The notes under the pieces are model-generated. The model worked only from the letters and a program-made list of their open reading frames with translations. It had not been told where the DNA came from and ran no database searches. 64,000 bases of DNA, taken from the NCBI RefSeq assembly GCF_022846255.1, contig NZ_AP025682.1; one strand, 5' to 3'. Made by a program: the position numbers and the translations under genes. Positions 25,567 to 33,729 of the stretch are shown piece by piece. Origin of the DNA: Escherichia coli (lineage in GTDB: Bacteria > Pseudomonadota > Gammaproteobacteria > Enterobacterales > Enterobacteriaceae). Position 1 is the stretch's first letter. Each line of letters opens with the position of its first letter.

Positions 25567-25577
25567 GTGGGGTGAAT

Positions 25578-28406
25578 ATGGCAGTAAAGATTTCAGGTGT
25601 CCTGAAAGACGGCACAGGAAAACCGGTACAGAACTGCACCATTCAACTGAAAGCCAGACGTAACAGCACCACGGTGGTGGTGAACACGGTGGCCTCTGAA
25701 AATCCGGATGAAGCCGGGCGTTACAGCATGGACGTTGAGTACGGTCAGTACAGCGTTATTCTGTTGGTGGAGGGGTTCCCGCCATCACATGCCGGGACTA
25801 TCACCGTGTATGAAGATTCTCAACCCGGTACGCTGAATGATTTTCTCGGTGCCATGACGGAGGATGATGCCCGTCCGGAGGCACTGCGCCGTTTTGAAGT
25901 GATGGTGGAAGAGGTGGCGCGTAACGCGTCCGCAGTGGCACAGAACACGGCAGCCGCGAAGAAGTCAGCCGGCGATGCCAGCACATCAGCCCGTGAGGCG
26001 GCAACCCATGCGACTGATGCTGCAGACTCAGCACGCGCAGCCAGCACGTCAGCCGGACAGGCCGTGTCGTCGGCTCAGTCAGCGTCTTCCAGCGCAGGAA
26101 CGGCATCAGCAAAGGCCACTGAAGCATCAAAAAGTGCTGCCGCTGCAGAGTCCTCAAAAAGCGCGGCGGCCACCAGTGCCGGTGCGGCAAAAACGTCAGA
26201 AACGAATGCTTCAGCGTCACAACAATCAGCAGCCACTTCTGCATCCACCGCGACTACGAAAGCGTCAGAAGCTGCCACCTCAGCCCGGGATGCGGCGGCC
26301 TCAAAAGAGGCAGCGAAATCATCAGAAACGAACGCATCCTCGAGCGCCAGTAGTTCCGCTTCCTCGGCAACGGCGGCAGGAAATTCCGCGAAGGCGGCAA
26401 AAACGTCCGAGACGAACGCCAGGTCTTCTGAGACGGCAGCGGGACAGAGCGCCTCAGCTGCGGCAGGCTCAAAAACAGCGGCTGCATCATCTGCCAGTGC
26501 CGCGTCAACAAGTGCCGGGCAGGCCTCAGCCAGTGCCACTGCCGCCGGAAAATCGGCAGAAAGCGCTGCATTGTCCGCTTCAACAGCCACAACGAAGGCT
26601 GGCGAAGCCGCTGAACAGGCCAGCGCAGCAGCGAGGTCTGCTTCCGCAGCGAAGACATCCGAAACGAACGCGAAAGCGTCGGAAACCAGCGCAGAATCCT
26701 CAAAAACGGCAGCCGCATCGTCCGCCAGTGCGGCGGCGTCATCGGCATCATCTGCGTCTGCTTCAAAAGATGAGGCGACCAGACAGGCGTCAGCAGCGAA
26801 GGACAGTGCCACGACGGCATCCACGAAGGCGACAGAGGCTGCTGGCAGTGCGACGGCGGCAGCACAGAGCAAAAGTACGGCAGAATCCGCCGCAACGCGC
26901 GCTGAGACAGCAGCAAAACGGGCAGAGGATATTGCATCCGCCGTGGCGCTTGAGGATGCAAGCACGACGAAAAAGGGGGTAGTACAGCTCAGCAGTGCGA
27001 CCAACAGCACTTCCGAGTCACTGGCGGCAACGCCAAAAGCCGTTAAGGCCGCGTATGACCTGGCTAACGGGAAATATACCGCTCAGGACGCTACGACAGC
27101 ACAAAAAGGAATTGTCCAGCTCAGTAGTGCAACCAACAGCGCATCTGAAACGCTTGCTGCGACATCGAAAGCAGTGAAAGCAGCTAATGACAATGCGAAT
27201 GGTCGGGTACCTTCTGCCCGTAAGGTGAATGGTAAGGCGCTTTCAGCGGATATAACACTGACACCGAAAGATATTGGTACGCTTAACTCAACAACTATGT
27301 CATTCAGCGGTGGTGCTGGTTGGTTCAAATTAGCAACGGTAACCATGCCGCAGGCGAGTTCTGTTGTTTCAATTACGTTGATTGGTGGGGCTGGATATAA
27401 CGTCGGTTCACCTCAACAGGCAGGTATATCTGAACTTGTTTTGCGTGCAGGTAATGGTAATCCGAAGGGGATTACTGGTGCTTTATGGCAGCGCACATCG
27501 GCAGGGTTTACAAATTTTGCCTGGGTCAATACATCTGGTGATACTTACGATATTTACGTTGCAATCGGAAATTATGCGACTGGTGTAAATATTCAATGGG
27601 ATTATACCAGTAATGCCAGCGTAACGATTCATACGTCACCAGCATATTCTGCTAATAAGCCGGAAGGGTTAACGGACGGTACAGTTTATTCACTCTATAC
27701 GCCATCAGAGCAGTTTTATCCGCCTGGCGCACCAATCCCGTGGCCATCGGATACCGTTCCGTCTGGTTATGCCCTGATGCAGGGGCAGACTTTTGACAAA
27801 TCTGCCTACCCGAAACTTGCAGTCGCTTATCCGTCAGGCGTGATCCCTGATATGCGTGGCTGGACGATTAAGGGCAAGCCCGCCAGTGGTCGTGCCGTAT
27901 TGTCTCAGGAGCAGGACGGCATTAAATCGCACACCCACAGCGCCAGCGCATCCAGTACGGATATGGGTACGAAAACCACATCGTCGTTTGATTACGGCAC
28001 TAAATCCACGAATAACACCGGGGCGCATACGCACAGTCTGAGCGGCTCTACAAGCTCGGCCGGAGCACACTCGCACGTTGATGGTCGCAGGTTTAATACA
28101 AGCACTTTTAAAGACACCTATCAGTATGGTTCTACAGCTGTCGGAAGTAACTCATACCAGGTACAAGGGGCGGTTGGTCTGGGCATTGGCACGATGGCGA
28201 ATACGAACTCTGCTGGCGCGCATACCCACTCACTGTCCGGCACTGCTGCAAGCGCAGGTGCACACGCACATACTGTCGGTATTGGTGCTCATACGCACTC
28301 CGTTGCGATTGGCTCACATGGACACACCATCACCGTTAACGCTGCTGGTAACGCGGAAAACACCGTCAAAAACATCGCATTTAACTATATTGTGAGGCTT
28401 GCATAA
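25578..28406 (+). CDS. stf: Side tail fibre Stf (942 aa), mosaic
   Basis: The N-terminus [32 protein letters not shown] and the C-terminus ...[18 protein letters not shown] match lambda Stf. It has a long Ala/Ser-rich repeat, two tandem KKG(V/I)VQLSSATNS repeats and a middle domain that is not lambda's. Confidence 0.93.
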
Positions 28407-28990
28407 TGGCATTCAGAATGAGTGAACAAGCACGGACCATAAAAATTTATAATCTGCTGGCCGGAACTAATGAATTTATTGGTGAAGGTGACGCATATAT
28501 TCCGCCTCATACAGGTCTGCCAGCAAACAGTACCGATATTGCACCACCAGATATTCCTGCTGGCTTTGTGGCTGTTTTCAACAGTGATGAGGCATCGTGG
28601 CATCTCGTTGAAGACCATCGGGGTAAAACGGTTTATGACGTAGCGTCAGGGGACGAGTTATTTATTTCTGAACTCGGTCCGTTACCGGAAAATGTTACCT
28701 GGTTATCGCCGGAAGGGGAGTTTCAGAAGTGGAACGGCACAGCCTGGGTGAAAGATGCAGAAGCAGAAAAACTGTTCCGGATCCGGGAGGCGGAAGAAAC
28801 AAAAAACAGCCTGATGCAGGTAGCCAGTGAGCATATTGCGCCACTTCAGGATGCTGTAGATCTGGAAATCGCAACGGAGGAAGAAACCTCATTGCTGGAA
28901 GCCTGGAAAAAGTATCGGGTGTTGCTGAACCGTGTTGATACATCAACTGCACCTGATATTGAGTGGCCTACGAACCCTGTCAGGGAGTAA
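28406..28990 (+). CDS. tfa: Tail fibre assembly protein Tfa (194 aa)
   Basis: [44 protein letters not shown]... matches lambda Tfa. Confidence 0.95.
28825..28968 (+). repeat. Direct repeat copy 1 (144 bp, tfa 3' end)
   Basis: Aligns without gaps to 29874-30017 with about a dozen mismatches. Confidence 0.9.
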
Positions 28991-29004
28991 TCATTGGGAT
29001 TATG

Positions 29005-29037
29005 CCGCAGCACGTCTTAAGCAAGAACGTGCTGCGG
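29005..29037. terminator. 11-bp perfect hairpin between convergent tfa and the methyltransferase gene
   Basis: CCGCAGCACGT-loop-ACGTGCTGCGG; a related hairpin recurs at 30054-30088. Confidence 0.6.
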
Positions 29038-29044
29038 TTGGATG

Positions 29045-29713
29045 CTATTTTTTCCCTGAAGCGGAAAACATTACTACAGTACCTTGAACCTTGGTTTTAA
29101 CATTCTCGAAATGCTCTGAGAGTATATGTGTTAAGCCTTCTTCGGAATCTTTTGTGTTTGAAAAGATGCCTTTCTGATTGTAAATGCGCATCAGTTTTTG
29201 ACCGAAGCTATTGTGCACAACTCCATCGCCAAGAATTGTGGCTCCGTATAGAGTTCCATCGTCAGTTAAGGCCTGCGCCGCATTGCGTATTACACAGCTT
29301 TTTGTAGATATATTTCCAGGCAGACAGTGAAGAAGGTAAAACATGGAAATGGAATCAAATTGACCATGTAACGCCGCGGGATAAGGTTCAAAAACATCAT
29401 GGTTAATTTTATGTTTAATTTTTGATTCCCCAGCCCTTGTAGATGCCGCGTTCAGGCTAGCTTCGTTCAAATCCATTAAAGATATCAGACTACTCTCAGG
29501 TACGTGAGTAAGGTAAAACCCAGTTCCAACACCAATATCCAGATGGTTGTTACCTAAATGTTCCAGAAAGTGTGGAAGAAGGTGTTCCTTTGTAGGACAT
29601 CCCCATGCAAGCCGATTTGATACTCCCAAAACCCACCAGTCATAAAGCTTTAGGGTAAGTGGTGTGTAAATTTTAGCCCCATCATCTGTGTTTTTTTTCA
29701 TTAATTTCACCAT
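29045..29713 (-). CDS. Class I SAM-dependent methyltransferase, small-molecule type (222 aa; alternative start at 29701)
   Basis: Motif I HLDIGVGTGFYL, post-I LMDLN, motif II FDSISMFYLLHCLP, motif III LTDDGTLYGATI. No DPPY/NPPY or PCQ DNA-methyltransferase motifs. The second ATG has the better GGTGA RBS. Confidence 0.8.
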   Translation of the reverse strand: MVKLMKKNTDDGAKIYTPLTLKLYDWWVLGVSNRLAWGCPTKEHLLPHFLEHLGNNHLDIGVGTGFYLTHVPESSLISLMDLNEASLNAASTRAGESKIKHKINHDVFEPYPAALHGQFDSISMFYLLHCLPGNISTKSCVIRNAAQALTDDGTLYGATILGDGVVHNSFGQKLMRIYNQKGIFSNTKDSEEGLTHILSEHFENVKTKVQGTVVMFSASGKK

Positions 29714-29769
29714 GTTATAGTTTTATTTGTGAATTAAATCAATTATGGCGATGAATTACAAGGGGTTAA

Positions 29770-30039
29770 ATGCTGCCGCAGCATAGCGATATTGAAATAG
29801 CCTGGTATGCTTCGATACAGCAGGAGCCGAATGGCTGGAAGACCGTCACCACACAGTTCTACATCCAGGAATTCAGTGAGTATATTGCGCCACTGCAGGA
29901 TGCTGTAGATCTGGAAATCGCAACGGAGGAAGAAAGATCGTTGCTGGAGGCATGGAATAAATATCGGGTGTTGCTGAACCGTGTTGATACATCAACTGCA
30001 CCTGATATTGAGTGGCCGGAAGAACCAGACACAATGTAA
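29770..30039 (+). CDS. Chimeric Tfa C-terminal fragment (89 aa)
   Basis: AAGGGG RBS precedes the ATG. The last ~50 aa ([35 protein letters not shown]) duplicate the Tfa C-terminus; the first ~37 aa are unrelated. Confidence 0.5.
29874..30017 (+). repeat. Direct repeat copy 2 (144 bp, inside the tfa-fragment ORF)
   Basis: Aligns to 28825-28968; the two copies bracket the methyltransferase gene. Confidence 0.9.
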
Positions 30040-30376
30040 GCGAAAAAGAAAAACCGCAGACACGACGTATGCAGGACGTGCTGCGGTTGGCTGGTGAACT
30101 TTCGATAGTGCGAGTATTGAATGATTTCCAGCCGTTACCGATTTTACGTATTTTTTGTATGGGAGGATTTGCATCTCCTCCCACCGATCCTCCATGACTT
30201 TACGCCACAGTCTCTAGGACTGCTATGTGCCAATAGCAGACATCCACACAATTATGTAAAATAGGCTAGTGAGTCAGCATTCATGTAGTTCAGACCATCT
30301 ATAGCTGAAATCACGATCGCTTAACAGTGATTCACTCATAACTGCTAGCGAGCAATGTTCTTGTTTGAACCTCAAA

Positions 30377-30405
30377 TTGAAACCACAAAATCGAAAGGTT
30401 AAATA
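30377..30405 (+). promoter_or_regulatory. Candidate sigma70 promoter of the 479-aa cargo gene
   Basis: TTGAAA, a 17-nt spacer, then TAAATA. A GAAGG SD lies at 30422-30426, 7 nt before ATG 30434. Confidence 0.4.
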
Positions 30406-30433
30406 ATCGATTATCCAAATAGAAGGCAATTCA

Positions 30434-31873
30434 ATGGGAAATCACGATTTTATTAAATATATTATATTATTTGGCTTGTCTGGGATAATGTTGGCTATGC
30501 TAGTGCTCTTTATTTCCTCTGTAGCATATTATTTTTTCACCCATAATAAAGGAGTTCTTCAGTATATAATTAAAACTATTTCCATAGGCCTTGTAACTAT
30601 TCCAGTCGCAATAATACTAATCGTTGCACTCGTCCATTATGTTGTCTGGCAAAAAGGGATTTCAACGGCATGGCGTTTTATATTCCACTCGACTAAAACA
30701 ACAACCGTGAATGATATTGCTAATGCTGAATCAGAAGATGTTATTGTTCACCTTGTTCATGGAACATTCGAGACGAATGCATCTTGGACACAACCTGAGT
30801 CAAAAATGTGCAAATCAATTAACTCAAGGAATCCCAATATTGGTATATCTCGATTTAAATGGGATGGCAAAAACTCTGCATCCTCTCGTAAACAAGCGGC
30901 ATATCAATTAGGAATGCATATTGATAACTCTCCTGCAAAATACAATTATATTATTGCACATAGCCATGGGGCAGCTATTGTAAGAGAAATGTCTTATTTA
31001 CGAAGTGATATTGCAAAAAAAATTCAAGGCGTATGTCTTTTGTCACCACCGTTCATCTTTCGACGTAGGATAAAAAGAACGTCAGGTACTTTAATTAATC
31101 TTATTGATATTAGCGGAACTTTGGCCATTCAATTGTTACTTGCAGCACTTTTTGTACCTTTGAATCTATATAATATTAATTATGCAGCAGTAATTTTTTT
31201 TGTTTCAATATTTGCAGAAATTATAATCTCCAAAAAATATAAAAAAGAATTTTTGCAGGAAGTTGAGAGTGGCGAGCACTGTGAAGCGGTTGATTTTAGG
31301 AATGTTGAAATTTATCACGCAATTGGTGATGAAGCCGATTCAGGCCTAAGATTTGTAAGTTCACTTCACGAAGGATGTTTTTCAATTCTTTCCCAGCTAA
31401 AAAAAGCTCAAGTAAGTCATAAAAAGCTAACACATTGGTCAGCAGTTTTAAGCTACCTATTTTATATTTCCATGAGTGTATTAATATGGTTCTTCTATCC
31501 TGAAGAAAAATCATGGATTATAGTATTATTAGTAAGCTTTGTATTAACTTCTATTTCTCACATTTGGCAAAGGTTGAAACCATCAAAGGATGTTCCTCAT
31601 GTTTTACTTATTGCAGCAATACCAGTTGCGATTTTTTCATTTTGGTTGGCTGTAGCTAAGGCCATAGCTTATGGAGATTTGCGATTAATATTTTGCCCGG
31701 AAGTTTTTATTGCATCATCTGAAACTCCAGCTGGAGATCATAAAGTTATTAAATTTGCTCCACAGAATGATGGTATATTAATACACTCAACACACTCGCA
31801 TCCGGAGGCTATAATTAATGTTTCTGAATGGTTATATTGCTCTGAGAATAAAAGGGTAAATGGTGAACCATAG
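30434..31873 (+). CDS. Polytopic membrane protein with alpha/beta-hydrolase (lipase/esterase-like) serine-hydrolase motifs (479 aa); function unknown
   Basis: About 7 hydrophobic helices. Motifs VIVHLVHGTF (HG), IIAHSHGAAIV (nucleophile elbow), VEIYHAIGDEAD (acid strand) and a His-rich tail HSTHSHPE. AT-rich, with its own promoter/SD and downstream hairpins. Confidence 0.75.
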   Translation: MGNHDFIKYIILFGLSGIMLAMLVLFISSVAYYFFTHNKGVLQYIIKTISIGLVTIPVAIILIVALVHYVVWQKGISTAWRFIFHSTKTTTVNDIANAESEDVIVHLVHGTFETNASWTQPESKMCKSINSRNPNIGISRFKWDGKNSASSRKQAAYQLGMHIDNSPAKYNYIIAHSHGAAIVREMSYLRSDIAKKIQGVCLLSPPFIFRRRIKRTSGTLINLIDISGTLAIQLLLAALFVPLNLYNINYAAVIFFVSIFAEIIISKKYKKEFLQEVESGEHCEAVDFRNVEIYHAIGDEADSGLRFVSSLHEGCFSILSQLKKAQVSHKKLTHWSAVLSYLFYISMSVLIWFFYPEEKSWIIVLLVSFVLTSISHIWQRLKPSKDVPHVLLIAAIPVAIFSFWLAVAKAIAYGDLRLIFCPEVFIASSETPAGDHKVIKFAPQNDGILIHSTHSHPEAIINVSEWLYCSENKRVNGEP

Positions 31874-31910
31874 ATTAATATAACCACCATAAATTAATTT
31901 GTAATATACT

Positions 31911-31931
31911 TCCCTGCTAAATTCGCAGGGG
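31911..31931 (+). terminator. Weak hairpin downstream of the cargo gene
   Basis: CCCTGC-TAAATTC-GCAGGG with no clear T tract. Confidence 0.3.
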
Positions 31932-31943
31932 AGTATAAAAATA

Positions 31944-31977
31944 TACTAACTCAGTGGAGTCTTGTGCTGAGTTAGTA
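31944..31977. other. 11-bp perfect-stem hairpin (12-nt loop) of unknown role
   Basis: TACTAACTCAG-TGGAGTCTTGTG-CTGAGTTAGTA with no T tract on either strand. Confidence 0.5.
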
Positions 31978-32335
31978 CATGTTAACAAGATATTTATTCA
32001 CCACTAAATAATTAGCTAGAACAATAAGAATAATTTTGGGCAGTAAAGACAGGATGTAAACTACACTTATTCCAGTATGTTGGTTATCGTAGTTATATAT
32101 GATGAGCTCTAAAGTCCGCTTCTCGCTCATAACAGACATTCACTACAGTTATAGTAGAAGGTATGCATGCTGAGTGGGGAAAGTGTGAAAGAAAAGAAGA
32201 CTGCTGCGTCGTTTGTCGTCACGTTTATCTTCATTGGTTATGCAAGTAGTAATACAAGATGGGACAAAACTGAGGCACACATAGCTTTGTACTGGATTGC
32301 TAGGCTTTGTGCTCTTCGATAGTGGTTAAGGTGGA

Positions 32336-33493
32336 TCACTCCACCTTTTCATCAATCCAGTCCGCCCACCATTGCATCATTTCTCTGCGTTTATCGAGAT
32401 ACTGAGCATGGTTGTAAATCCCACGCACAGATCCGCCGTTGGCATGTGCCAGTTGCACTTCAATAGCGTCAGCAGGCCATTCGTGCTCGTTCATAATTGT
32501 GCTGAATTCATGCCTGAATCCGTGACCGCTTTCCAGACCCTCATAGCCGATTTGTTTGATCACAAGCAATACCGCGTTCTCGCAGATTGGCTTCTTCTTA
32601 TCGTTGCGCCCGGCAAAAACAAACTCTGATACTGGTTTAGTGATGGAGCTTAGCGTAGTGAGAAGTTCAACCACCTGGTCTGACATAGGAACAACATGAA
32701 TCTTGCGGCCCTTCATCACACTGGCGTCGATAGTGATAATCCTGTTTTCAAAATCGACGTTCTTCCATTGCATGGAGCGAAGCTCTTTCGTTCTTAGGGC
32801 TGTGTAGCGTAAAACTTTGGTCGCAATGAGCGATATGATGCTTCCTGAAAATGTTGCCAGTGCTTTGTTGAATGCAGGGATCTGGTCTGCTGGGAGAAAC
32901 GGGAAGTTCTTCTTGCGGTATCCCTTCATGGCGTCAGCAAGGTCAGGTGCCGGGTTATATTTAGCCCTACCAGTGACAATAGCGTAACGGAAAACCTCGC
33001 CGCATCTTCTGCGGGCTTTGTTGGCTCGCTCCATTGCACCGCGATCTTCAAATCTGCGGATTACTTCCAGCAGTTGCATCGGCTCAATATCCTGAATTTC
33101 AAGGCCGCCGATGATAGGTAAAATGTCGTCATCAAACATTTTTGCAAGTTCAGTTGCATAGCCTACTGACCAGACTTGCTTCTTGTGCTCGTACCATTCC
33201 TTGTAAATCGCACTAAAGGAATTGTTGTTAGACGAAGCCTTTTTCGCTTTTACCGGATCGATGCCAACCGAGATGTCTTTCCTCGCGGTCCATGCTTTAT
33301 CTCTTGCCTCCTGCAAAGTCATTAGCGGATATTTTCCTACGGTCAGGATTTTCTCCTTACCGTCAATCTTGTAGCGAAGCTGCCATACCTTTTTCCCTGA
33401 CACAGGGACATAAAGGTACAGGCCATTACCATCGAGTAGGCGGTATGGTTTTTCTTTCGGCTTTGCTGCTTCAATCTGCTTAACGGTGAGCAT
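32336..33493 (-). CDS. intS: Tyrosine integrase IntS (KplE1/CPS-53 type, 385 aa)
   Basis: ATG 33493 gives MLTVKQIEAAKPKEKPYRLLDGNGLYLYVPVSGKKVWQLRYK.... Near-identical to my recollection of K-12 IntS; the C-terminal catalytic region has HGFRH and an RGIYNH tyrosine region. Confidence 0.95.
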   Translation of the reverse strand: MLTVKQIEAAKPKEKPYRLLDGNGLYLYVPVSGKKVWQLRYKIDGKEKILTVGKYPLMTLQEARDKAWTARKDISVGIDPVKAKKASSNNNSFSAIYKEWYEHKKQVWSVGYATELAKMFDDDILPIIGGLEIQDIEPMQLLEVIRRFEDRGAMERANKARRRCGEVFRYAIVTGRAKYNPAPDLADAMKGYRKKNFPFLPADQIPAFNKALATFSGSIISLIATKVLRYTALRTKELRSMQWKNVDFENRIITIDASVMKGRKIHVVPMSDQVVELLTTLSSITKPVSEFVFAGRNDKKKPICENAVLLVIKQIGYEGLESGHGFRHEFSTIMNEHEWPADAIEVQLAHANGGSVRGIYNHAQYLDKRREMMQWWADWIDEKVE

Positions 33494-33654
33494 GGGTAAA
33501 AATCCGGTGGGTAAAATTATTTTATCCACTTTTTACCCGTCATGGAGTGCGGCTGTCAACGATCTGACGCGAACCATTACGAACTGTGAATCTACGGAAG
33601 GCTTGATATTCAGGGGATTTTGCGGACTGGTACGGATGGGAGCGAACTGATAAA
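33494..33654. promoter_or_regulatory. attL arm and intS promoter region
   Basis: Lies between the intS start and the argW 3' end. GGGTAAAA occurs at 33494-33501 and 33509-16, with an inverted TTTTACCC at 33531-38; these are candidate recombinase/RDF binding repeats. Confidence 0.5.
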
Positions 33655-33729
33655 TGGTGTCCCCTGCAGGAATCGAACCTGCAATTAGCCCTTAGGAGGG
33701 GCTCGTTATATCCATTTAACTAAGAGGAC
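33655..33729 (-). tRNA. argW: tRNA-Arg (anticodon CCU)
   Basis: The reverse complement reads GTCCTCTTAGTTAAATGGATATAACGAGCCCCTCCTAAGGGCTAATTGCAGGTTCGATTCCTGCAGGGGACACCA: 75 nt, cloverleaf-compatible, CCA end. Confidence 0.95.

Follow-up and report, generated by a model that had tools for sequence, protein, structure and literature searches.

A methyltransferase block flanked by two copies of the tfa 3' end in a DLP12-type prophage of Escherichia coli

We analysed a 64,000-nucleotide stretch of Escherichia coli DNA (contig NZ_AP025682.1 of assembly GCF_022846255.1), hereafter called the window, and focused on the region that follows tfa, the tail fibre assembly gene of a lambdoid prophage. In this region a methyltransferase (MT) gene of the YbcY family is oriented against the late genes and lies between two direct copies of the tfa 3' end. 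We consider, with a probability of roughly 0.8, that the MT gene belongs to an accessory block derived from a module of the type dinI-MT|orf79-umuD, which would have been connected to tfa by a single non-homologous joint and would then have spread through tfa homology. Judged from alignments, the locus corresponds to the tfaD-ybcY-tfaX arrangement already annotated in K-12 prophage DLP12, here with its genes intact, and it is common and ordinary.

The upstream tfa gene (28406..28990, plus strand) encodes a full-length protein of 194 aa and is, as predicted from its profile match, the functional copy: it matched Caudo_TAP over profile positions 1-130 (E 2.7e-45), and its 66 C-terminal residues aligned to Mu TfaU (5YVQ). 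Codons 141-188 of this gene constitute copy A of the direct repeat (28825..28968, plus strand), while copy B (29874..30017, plus strand) encodes Tfa residues 141-188 in frame with codon 35 of a fragment of another gene, orf79. An alignment check showed that the coordinates proposed for these 144-bp ungapped repeats by an earlier, sequence-only reading of the window were exact; the mismatches, which it had put at about a dozen, are indeed few and number 9 (135/144 identical positions, 93.8%). A repeat search recovered the same pair as a 155-nt family at 92% identity, the leftward extension consisting of 11 bases of partial similarity (microhomology). Within the repeats, perfect blocks extend over 56 bp, at the 3' end, and 40 bp. 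A hairpin starts 36 bp past the end of each copy, in agreement with the spacing of about 35 bp noticed previously. Hairpin A (29005..29041) lies between the convergent tfa and MT genes and has a predicted folding energy of -28.3 kcal/mol (z -5.2); hairpin B (30054..30090) folds at -19.4 kcal/mol on the plus strand (z -2.4) and at -19.0 kcal/mol on the minus strand. Both are more stable than shuffled sequence and their 15-nt right arms are identical (ACGTGCTGCGGTTGG). On the plus strand, a T6 run is found 8 nt past the stem of hairpin A, and on the minus strand a T-run directly follows the stem of hairpin B. Because this T-run is on the minus-strand side, hairpin B looks like a putative terminator for leftward transcription; in a related locus (L106), the equivalent of hairpin B is preceded by a tfa fragment, about 115 bp beyond which a leftward dinI-like gene is located. 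A unit of about 215 bp, made of the last 54 codons of tfa and the hairpin, is thus present on both sides of the insert.

The inserted segment (29033..29873, about 840 bp) comprises the MT gene, a divergent spacer and codons 1-35 of orf79. The reverse-oriented methyltransferase gene described between the copies was confirmed as an open reading frame (ORF) at 29045..29713 on the minus strand. What had been described as 110 bp of unrelated sequence turned out to measure 160 bp: the MT start and copy B are separated by non-tfa DNA at 29714-29873, whose source could be identified as a putative promoter spacer followed by the first 35 codons of orf79 (phrog_3893). The spacer (29714..29769) is AT-rich and carries the putative MT promoter region and the ribosome-binding site of orf79 and ORF89; the orf79-family fragment (29770..29873, plus strand) provides the start codon and N-terminus of the 89-aa ORF, ORF89, that runs into copy B. 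orf79 represents a conserved 79-aa phage family, and residues 3-37 of ORF89 matched positions 2-36 of the 79 positions of the phrog_3893 profile in PHROGs (E 3.3e-7). Residues 1-35 of ORF89, used as a tblastn query, retrieved phage Ayreon (75% identity) and Klebsiella phages (54%), besides weaker matches. Intact orf79 genes, each upstream of a UmuD-like gene, were found in Klebsiella phage Kp4882-3 (L104:2504-2743), in phage Eeyore, as an unannotated 79-aa ORF (L105:2004-2243), and in Citrobacter freundii (L107/L109), where the 80-aa product shares 27/35 residues with the N-terminus of ORF89. In C. freundii, MT and then dinI are transcribed in one direction, and orf79 followed by the umuD-like gene in the other; the MT protein, divergent to orf79, is 90% identical to that of the window, and no tfa sequence was found near this module. 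The window aligned with the C. freundii locus L107 from 29033 to 29876 (844 bp, 90.9% identity), and these limits of homology delimit exactly the DNA between the two units of tfa 3' end, tail and hairpin. The spacer is 94.6% identical to its C. freundii counterpart, and the segment formerly taken as unrelated matches the C. freundii spacer and the start of orf79 there at 83-95% identity. In phage Ayreon, the tfa 3' end, hairpin A and the spacer are retained, but all of the MT gene except its last 32 bp or so is deleted, and the orf79 frame runs on beyond the point where the window switches to tfa.

ORF89 (29770..30039, plus strand; phrog_2341, E 6e-60) corresponds to TfaX of K-12. Its alignment with orf79 departs after residue 35, where orf79 codon 35 is followed in frame by Tfa residue 141, and the 54 residues that follow the junction derive from the Tfa C-terminus, 46 of them being identical to the Tfa of the window. 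The proposal that this ORF has acquired a new ribosome-binding site and N-terminus and ends with about 50 aa of Tfa therefore stands, with 54 aa as the exact figure and orf79 as the N-terminus. Microhomology at the junction is limited to a few bases and imperfect (orf79 TCCAGGAACTGAGCAAG, tfa GCAGGTAGCCAGTGAG, chimera TCCAGGAATTCAGTGAG). On these alignments ORF89 is an in-frame orf79'::'tfa chimera resulting from one non-homologous joint. It is incomplete with respect to both source genes. The C-terminal domain of TFA proteins is a conserved oligomerisation/assembly module and their N-terminal domain binds the fibre (PMC9608196); ORF89 matched only positions 75-130 of the 131 positions of Caudo_TAP, compared to 1-130 for Tfa, and thus has the C-terminal domain and no fibre-binding N-domain. 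As an orf79 gene it is also incomplete, with a partial profile match and no UmuD-like gene downstream.

We then compared 93 loci carrying an MT gene 99-100% identical to that of the window, 89 of which include the orf79|tfa junction. The junction occupied the same position in 89/89 loci, with only scattered single-base variants nearby, and the right arm of hairpin A and the MT stop region were essentially constant. The sequences around this core varied. The left arm and loop of hairpin A existed as at least four allelic types. The upstream tfa was of several kinds, some sharing only the last 75-125 bp with the window, and some loci had no upstream tfa. After copy B we found an A-type tail and hairpin (about 26 loci, giving a repeat of about 215 bp), a B-type tail (about 18) or a cut at repeat position 121 (about 18), and in some loci copy B carried the allele of window copy A or of another prophage locus, L002. 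A full-length second tfa, which the sequence-only reading had named as the sign of an ancestral duplication, was looked for and seen in none of the loci surveyed, orf79 sequence preceding copy B in all 89. The fixed junction indicates that the joint arose once, and the arrangement is old and not a recent local footprint. The mosaic flanks show the pattern expected from homologous exchange within the conserved tfa 3' end and hairpin, and point to a later spread of the block by homologous recombination. Consistent with this, a 200-bp fragment of the lambda tfa 3' end was found to recombine under Red with both DLP12 copies and with tfaR, the 12 recombinants being distributed between tfaD (7), the second fragment (2) and tfaR (3) (PMC545071, Poteete et al.).

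The distribution of the arrangement was examined in complete genomes and phages. At least 80% of the 28300-30300 region was present in 1107/5426 complete E. coli genomes, and the 160-bp segment between MT and copy B in 3867/5426. The arrangement was also found in Shigella and E. albertii, and in isolated temperate phages such as PhiR29/30 and the inducible PhiR26_1, 2G7b, ev243, Kati and Turner. The cassette was absent from lambda, HK629/630, ev099, PhiR42_1 and L002. Lambda, HK629/630, ev099 and L002 displayed one tfa and one homologous hairpin, which is the empty site that had been predicted; L002 matched the copy-B side of the window at 100% identity over the final 22 bases of tfa, the hairpin and about 50 bp beyond it. 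These comparisons support the view that the MT segment was inserted, as judged against related phages. We also looked at argW/intS for two nearly isogenic prophages differing in the presence of the cassette; the candidate without it, L100, has a different tfa tail and different downstream DNA, and the comparison was uninformative.

On this basis we propose that the right end of the insert was created by a single non-homologous joint, from orf79 codon 35 to Tfa residue 141, while at its left end the end of the hairpin downstream of tfa would have been joined about 9 bp past the MT stop codon. Such a joint could result from illegitimate recombination, with two phage genomes or two sister copies as partners, or from template switching at the hairpin. 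RecA or Red recombination in the tfa 3' end and hairpin would then have spread the block among phages with different tail-fibre modules, and the same homology could delete it. The sequence-only reading had proposed a simpler scheme, in which homologous exchange between two phages at their tfa 3' ends brought in the cassette, the N-terminus of ORF89 being filler. Its insertion component agrees with the empty sites, and tfa 3' ends are highly conserved and recombinogenic (PMC545071), with flanks that are mosaic between loci. Nevertheless, exchange between single-copy tfa ends cannot make a duplication, the junction combines orf79 codon 35 and tfa codon 141 over a few bases of microhomology at one position in 89 loci, and the presumed filler is closely related to the C. 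freundii spacer and gene start. Taken literally this scheme is unlikely: these findings refute it as an account of how the joint originated, although it still holds for the subsequent dissemination of the block.

Several observations weigh against the reading that we favour. The 93 loci are phylogenetically non-independent, their number overstates the sample size, and the integrity counts given below are indicative. We found no E. coli phage with an intact MT gene beside an intact orf79; the unfused form is known from Citrobacter, whose MT is 90% identical in amino acids, and from Ayreon, in which MT is deleted. The joint event is not uniquely reconstructable, as illegitimate recombination between two genomes, tandem duplication followed by loss, and template switching all fit. 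A consensus terminator scan called neither hairpin an intrinsic terminator, and the term terminator applied to them by the sequence-only reading is an interpretation of their structure. Finally, the in-frame fusion, a good Shine-Dalgarno sequence and the existence of a PHROG for ORF89-type proteins leave room for a function of ORF89.

The two genes of the block have different fates. The MT ORF encodes 222 aa and matched phrog_2132 in PHROGs over residues 5-222 (E 2.7e-156); since homologues are typically 218 aa long, the true start is likely the ATG at 29701, giving a predicted protein of 218 aa. It belongs to a large Enterobacterales family. Among the complete copies, 79/82 were intact, and polymorphism amounted to 21 synonymous and 18 non-synonymous changes, for a synonymous expectation of 22%, which indicates that purifying selection acts on MT. 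Its GC content (40.5%) differs from that of tfa (47.9%) and stf (55.1%). Profile searches returned generic class I S-adenosylmethionine (SAM)-dependent families of small-molecule type alone (Pfam Methyltransf_12/23/25/11/31, MTS), and the closest solved structures in a PDB sequence search were UbiG and a juvenile-hormone acid methyltransferase (E ~1.5e-3). There was no curated NCBIfam match above cut-off, the hits being far below the cut-offs, and no convincing match to a defence-system model in PADLOC. A role as DNA methyltransferase, either orphan or part of a restriction-modification system, was considered and rejected, as no DNA-methyltransferase family was matched. Promoter-like hexamers are present in the spacer on the minus strand (29769..29742), and in K-12 the spacer between ybcY and tfaX is a genomic SELEX site of the RpoD holoenzyme and is bound by H-NS (PMC3946193). 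MT would thus be transcribed from its own promoter in the spacer, with H-NS silencing in K-12. More distant homologues occupy other contexts. Those at 80-88% identity, in Salmonella and E. coli, were located in islands with IS elements, PerC, or TetR/esterase genes; in these contexts no called Caudo_TAP gene was found nearby, small uncharacterised called genes being left aside, and no called gene of 79-80 aa was adjacent and divergent to MT. Homologues at 62-65% identity were observed in Enterobacter chromosomes (L012 4001-4657 and neighbours, Enterobacter cloacae), next to an oligopeptidase-like gene, a short-chain dehydrogenase gene and an AT-rich 470-aa ORF. No phage genes were in view at these Enterobacter sites, and the MT family is therefore not intrinsically phage-borne. 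A 45-aa ORF (28963-29100, plus strand) that overlaps hairpin A and the MT 3' end is annotated as a hypothetical protein in RefSeq genomes (WP_001309429.1), and its equivalent in a K-12-like strain is labelled 'nucleocapsid protein' (WP_071592174.1); it is almost certainly spurious. Conserved and widespread, MT is the part of the locus that most deserves experimental attention.

By contrast with MT, ORF89 was full-length in 44/79 copies and disrupted in 35/79 (about 44%). The lesions included a stop at W62 (11 loci), frameshifts, among them those of K-12-type loci (a 66-aa variant in 3 loci), early stops, and a C-terminus replaced or truncated at repeat position 121. The N-terminal part accumulated 6 synonymous and 11 non-synonymous changes, with no clear departure from the neutral expectation, and the prokaryotic genome annotation pipeline (PGAP) usually labels ORF89 as a pseudogene, as in L004, L099, L103 and L106. 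These data mark ORF89 as a decaying chimeric leftover, unlike the conserved MT. The expressed protein consisting of the Tfa C-domain alone, envisaged by the earlier reading, is consequently not favoured. Such a protein could be a functional trimerisation/assembly domain, for instance a helper or a dominant-negative partner of full-length Tfa: the Shine-Dalgarno AAGGGG, inherited with the orf79 start, stands 4 nt upstream of the ATG, more than half of the copies are full-length, RNA polymerase binds the spacer in K-12 (PMC3946193), and the retained domain is the one with a conserved assembly role (PMC9608196). The independent lesions, including the frameshift of K-12, the nearly neutral N-terminal substitutions and the missing fibre-binding domain make this quite improbable. 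Moreover, a transcript from the promoter proposed for tfaX (PMC3946193) would lack the start codon, as the -10 hexamer of this promoter overlaps it. We regard as a shade more doubtful still the idea that chimeras of the TfaX type (phrog_2341) are made in the lysogen and mix with the Tfa of superinfecting or co-resident lambdoid phages, which would poison or assist side-fibre assembly; if true, the apparent scar would be a co-opted gene.

Least probable is an ancestral tandem tfa duplication, or the remnant of a two-fibre or invertible module, with a second copy later deprived of its 5' part and MT inserted between the two: many phages do have two tfa genes in invertible segments and the DNA after copy B resembles the pinE flank of an e14-like element, but the copies are direct with 0 inverted repeats reported, no invertase gene is present, the similarity to the pinE region is confined to sequence downstream of that gene, and 0/89 loci had tfa N-terminal sequence before copy B. 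Direct copies, 0 inverted repeats, no invertase ORF and the limited pinE match also led us to discard an invertible tail-fibre segment of the Mu G, P1 C or e14 P type (Gin/Cin/Pin); the limited pinE match was likewise the reason to reject a remnant of the pin invertase after copy B. A transposable element with target-site duplication was rejected as well: the insert encodes only MT and the orf79 fragment, has no terminal inverted repeats, and its flanking duplication is about 215 bp long.

The structure had further been described as deletion-prone. Perfect blocks of 56 and 40 bp are enough for RecA- or Red-dependent exchange, which makes the suggestion mechanistically plausible, but no recombinant products were found. 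The combination of single-nucleotide polymorphisms (SNPs) specific to copy B was in the cassette copy in 80/80 of the viral-contig loci listed and never in a full-length tfa; this SNP search revealed no repeat-mediated deletion product or donor tfa, and crossovers in the identical 3' 56 bp would be traceless. That the block occurs almost everywhere shows that it is sufficiently stable.

The window contains a complete lambdoid prophage of the DLP12 type, with rusA, an nmpC-like porin gene, a lysozyme gene, the large terminase gene, J and lom, and the locus forms the right end of its late operon. The side tail fibre gene stf (25572..28406, plus strand, 944 aa; Pfam phage_tail_N, Phage_fiber_2 and Collar) precedes tfa and follows J and lom; between positions 25900 and 27000 it has a long Ala/Ser/Thr-rich low-complexity stretch that gives rise to long spurious ORFs, such as 26075-27010 on the minus strand and 25975-26982 on the plus strand. 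Hairpin B is followed by conserved DNA (30096..30230), the first 50 bp or so of which are identical in L002, and which is 90% identical to the DNA directly downstream of pinE in an e14-like element (L003:2545-2677), where the Avs2 defence gene comes next. In L106 the DNA shared after the hairpin ends at the stop of the leftward dinI-like gene. This segment appears to be a module boundary common to different prophage types. No LexA box (CTG-N10-CAG) was found in 28900-30400.

Beyond this boundary, DNA of 35% GC (30100-32300) separates the prophage end from intS and contains a 479-aa ORF (30434-31873, plus strand). Its product has hydrophobic segments near the N-terminus and a weak serine-hydrolase match, and no PHROG, NCBIfam or PADLOC match. 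In other strains this site is occupied by a 494-aa alpha/beta hydrolase gene in the opposite orientation together with ompT, or by IS1 and an AraC-family gene, and it looks like a hotspot for variable cargo. In K-12 DLP12 (L223, tfaX-appY-ompT), ompT follows a tfaX-type fragment at a distance of a few kb, as it does in an argW-linked prophage of E. coli ZYS9073 (L099, tfa'-hydrolase-ompT-intS), which suggests that ompT travels as cargo of the present prophage end. The gene of the P4-type integrase IntS (32336-33529, minus strand) adjoins the tRNA-Arg(CCU) gene argW (33655-33729, minus strand). It is transcribed away from argW towards the tail-fibre end, whereas in lambda int and tfa are at opposite prophage ends; this layout may reflect a tandem or composite element. 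No second copy of the argW attachment site was found in the window.

One annotation at the locus deserves a comment. RefSeq/PGAP places a 'DinI family protein' pseudogene at 29788-29868 on the minus strand (L103:2075-2155), antisense to the orf79 fragment. We considered that a DinI N-terminal fragment might be encoded there, on the minus strand of the 160-bp segment, and rejected this possibility: the minus-strand translation had no match to Pfam DinI, and three other genomes carry an intact plus-strand orf79 gene. The 160-aa protein annotated as 'DinI' in phage Eeyore (L105:1641-2123) contains the DinI domain at residues 89-149 only, and its 88 N-terminal residues are antisense to the unannotated 79-aa orf79-family ORF on the plus strand. 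The pseudogene is probably an artefact propagated from DinI ORFs that were extended too far.

The arrangement is of little weight as a discovery, being annotated in K-12 and carried by most E. coli genomes. What appears to be a small new detail is the identification of ORF89/TfaX as an orf79'::'tfa chimera together with its source module. It explains K-12 tfaX as a fusion in which the first codons of a small gene, one that generally precedes a UmuD-like gene, are followed by a tfa 3' end, and it flags the 'DinI family' pseudogene as a probable annotation artefact. The locus also offers a worked example of phage mosaicism, with one non-homologous joint followed by spread through conserved flanking homology; the joint would have been tolerated because both broken genes are dispensable. 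In the literature, work on tfaX concerned the tfaX-appY spacer and not the present locus, and a four-term search for a methyltransferase moron after tfa retrieved none.

The closest known system is DLP12 itself. In K-12 MG1655, tfaD (b0561), ybcY (b0562, a pseudogene) and tfaX (b0563) have the order, orientation and orf79|tfa junction of the window, with identities of 99% for MT, 98.8% for the spacer and 99.3% for copy A; when the K-12-like locus L001 was considered along with MG1655 (L223), the order and junction position were the same and the identities of MT and spacer ranged from 98.7 to 99.3%. The K-12 version is degraded, as the 5' part of tfaD is gone and the remainder is fused to a terminase fragment, ybcY is frameshifted, and tfaX is frameshifted and more diverged (88.8% identical), whereas stf, tfa, MT and ORF89 are all intact in the window. 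The prophage sites also differ, argW/intS in the window and argU for K-12 DLP12. The two DLP12 copies had already been noted as direct homologues of the lambda tfa 3' end by Poteete et al. 2004 (PMC545071). Lambda represents the empty-site state: its tfa (orf-194) is 93% identical in DNA and is followed by a homologous CCGCAG...CTGCGG hairpin and then by the leftward accessory gene ea47, but MT, the orf79 fragment and the second tfa end of the window are all absent from lambda. The C. freundii module (GCA_016847845.1) represents the unfused type of source module, with MT, spacer and orf79 5' end collinear with 29033-29876; there, unlike in the window, orf79 is intact and followed by the UmuD-like gene, and MT is followed by dinI instead of a convergent tfa. 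A related module, dinI | orf79-umuD, exists in phage Eeyore. Finally, the MT of the window, a putative moron-like gene, may be compared with the morons described for lambdoid phages by Juhala and Hendrix. Like a moron, it is patchily present among otherwise collinear phages, differs from its neighbours in base composition, with a low GC content, and is oriented against the late operon. The spacer, with its promoter-like hexamers, and hairpin A, which folds well, may provide it with a promoter and a terminator of its own. Unlike the usual description, the insert is flanked by a duplication of about 215 bp and ends on one side in a chimeric frame.

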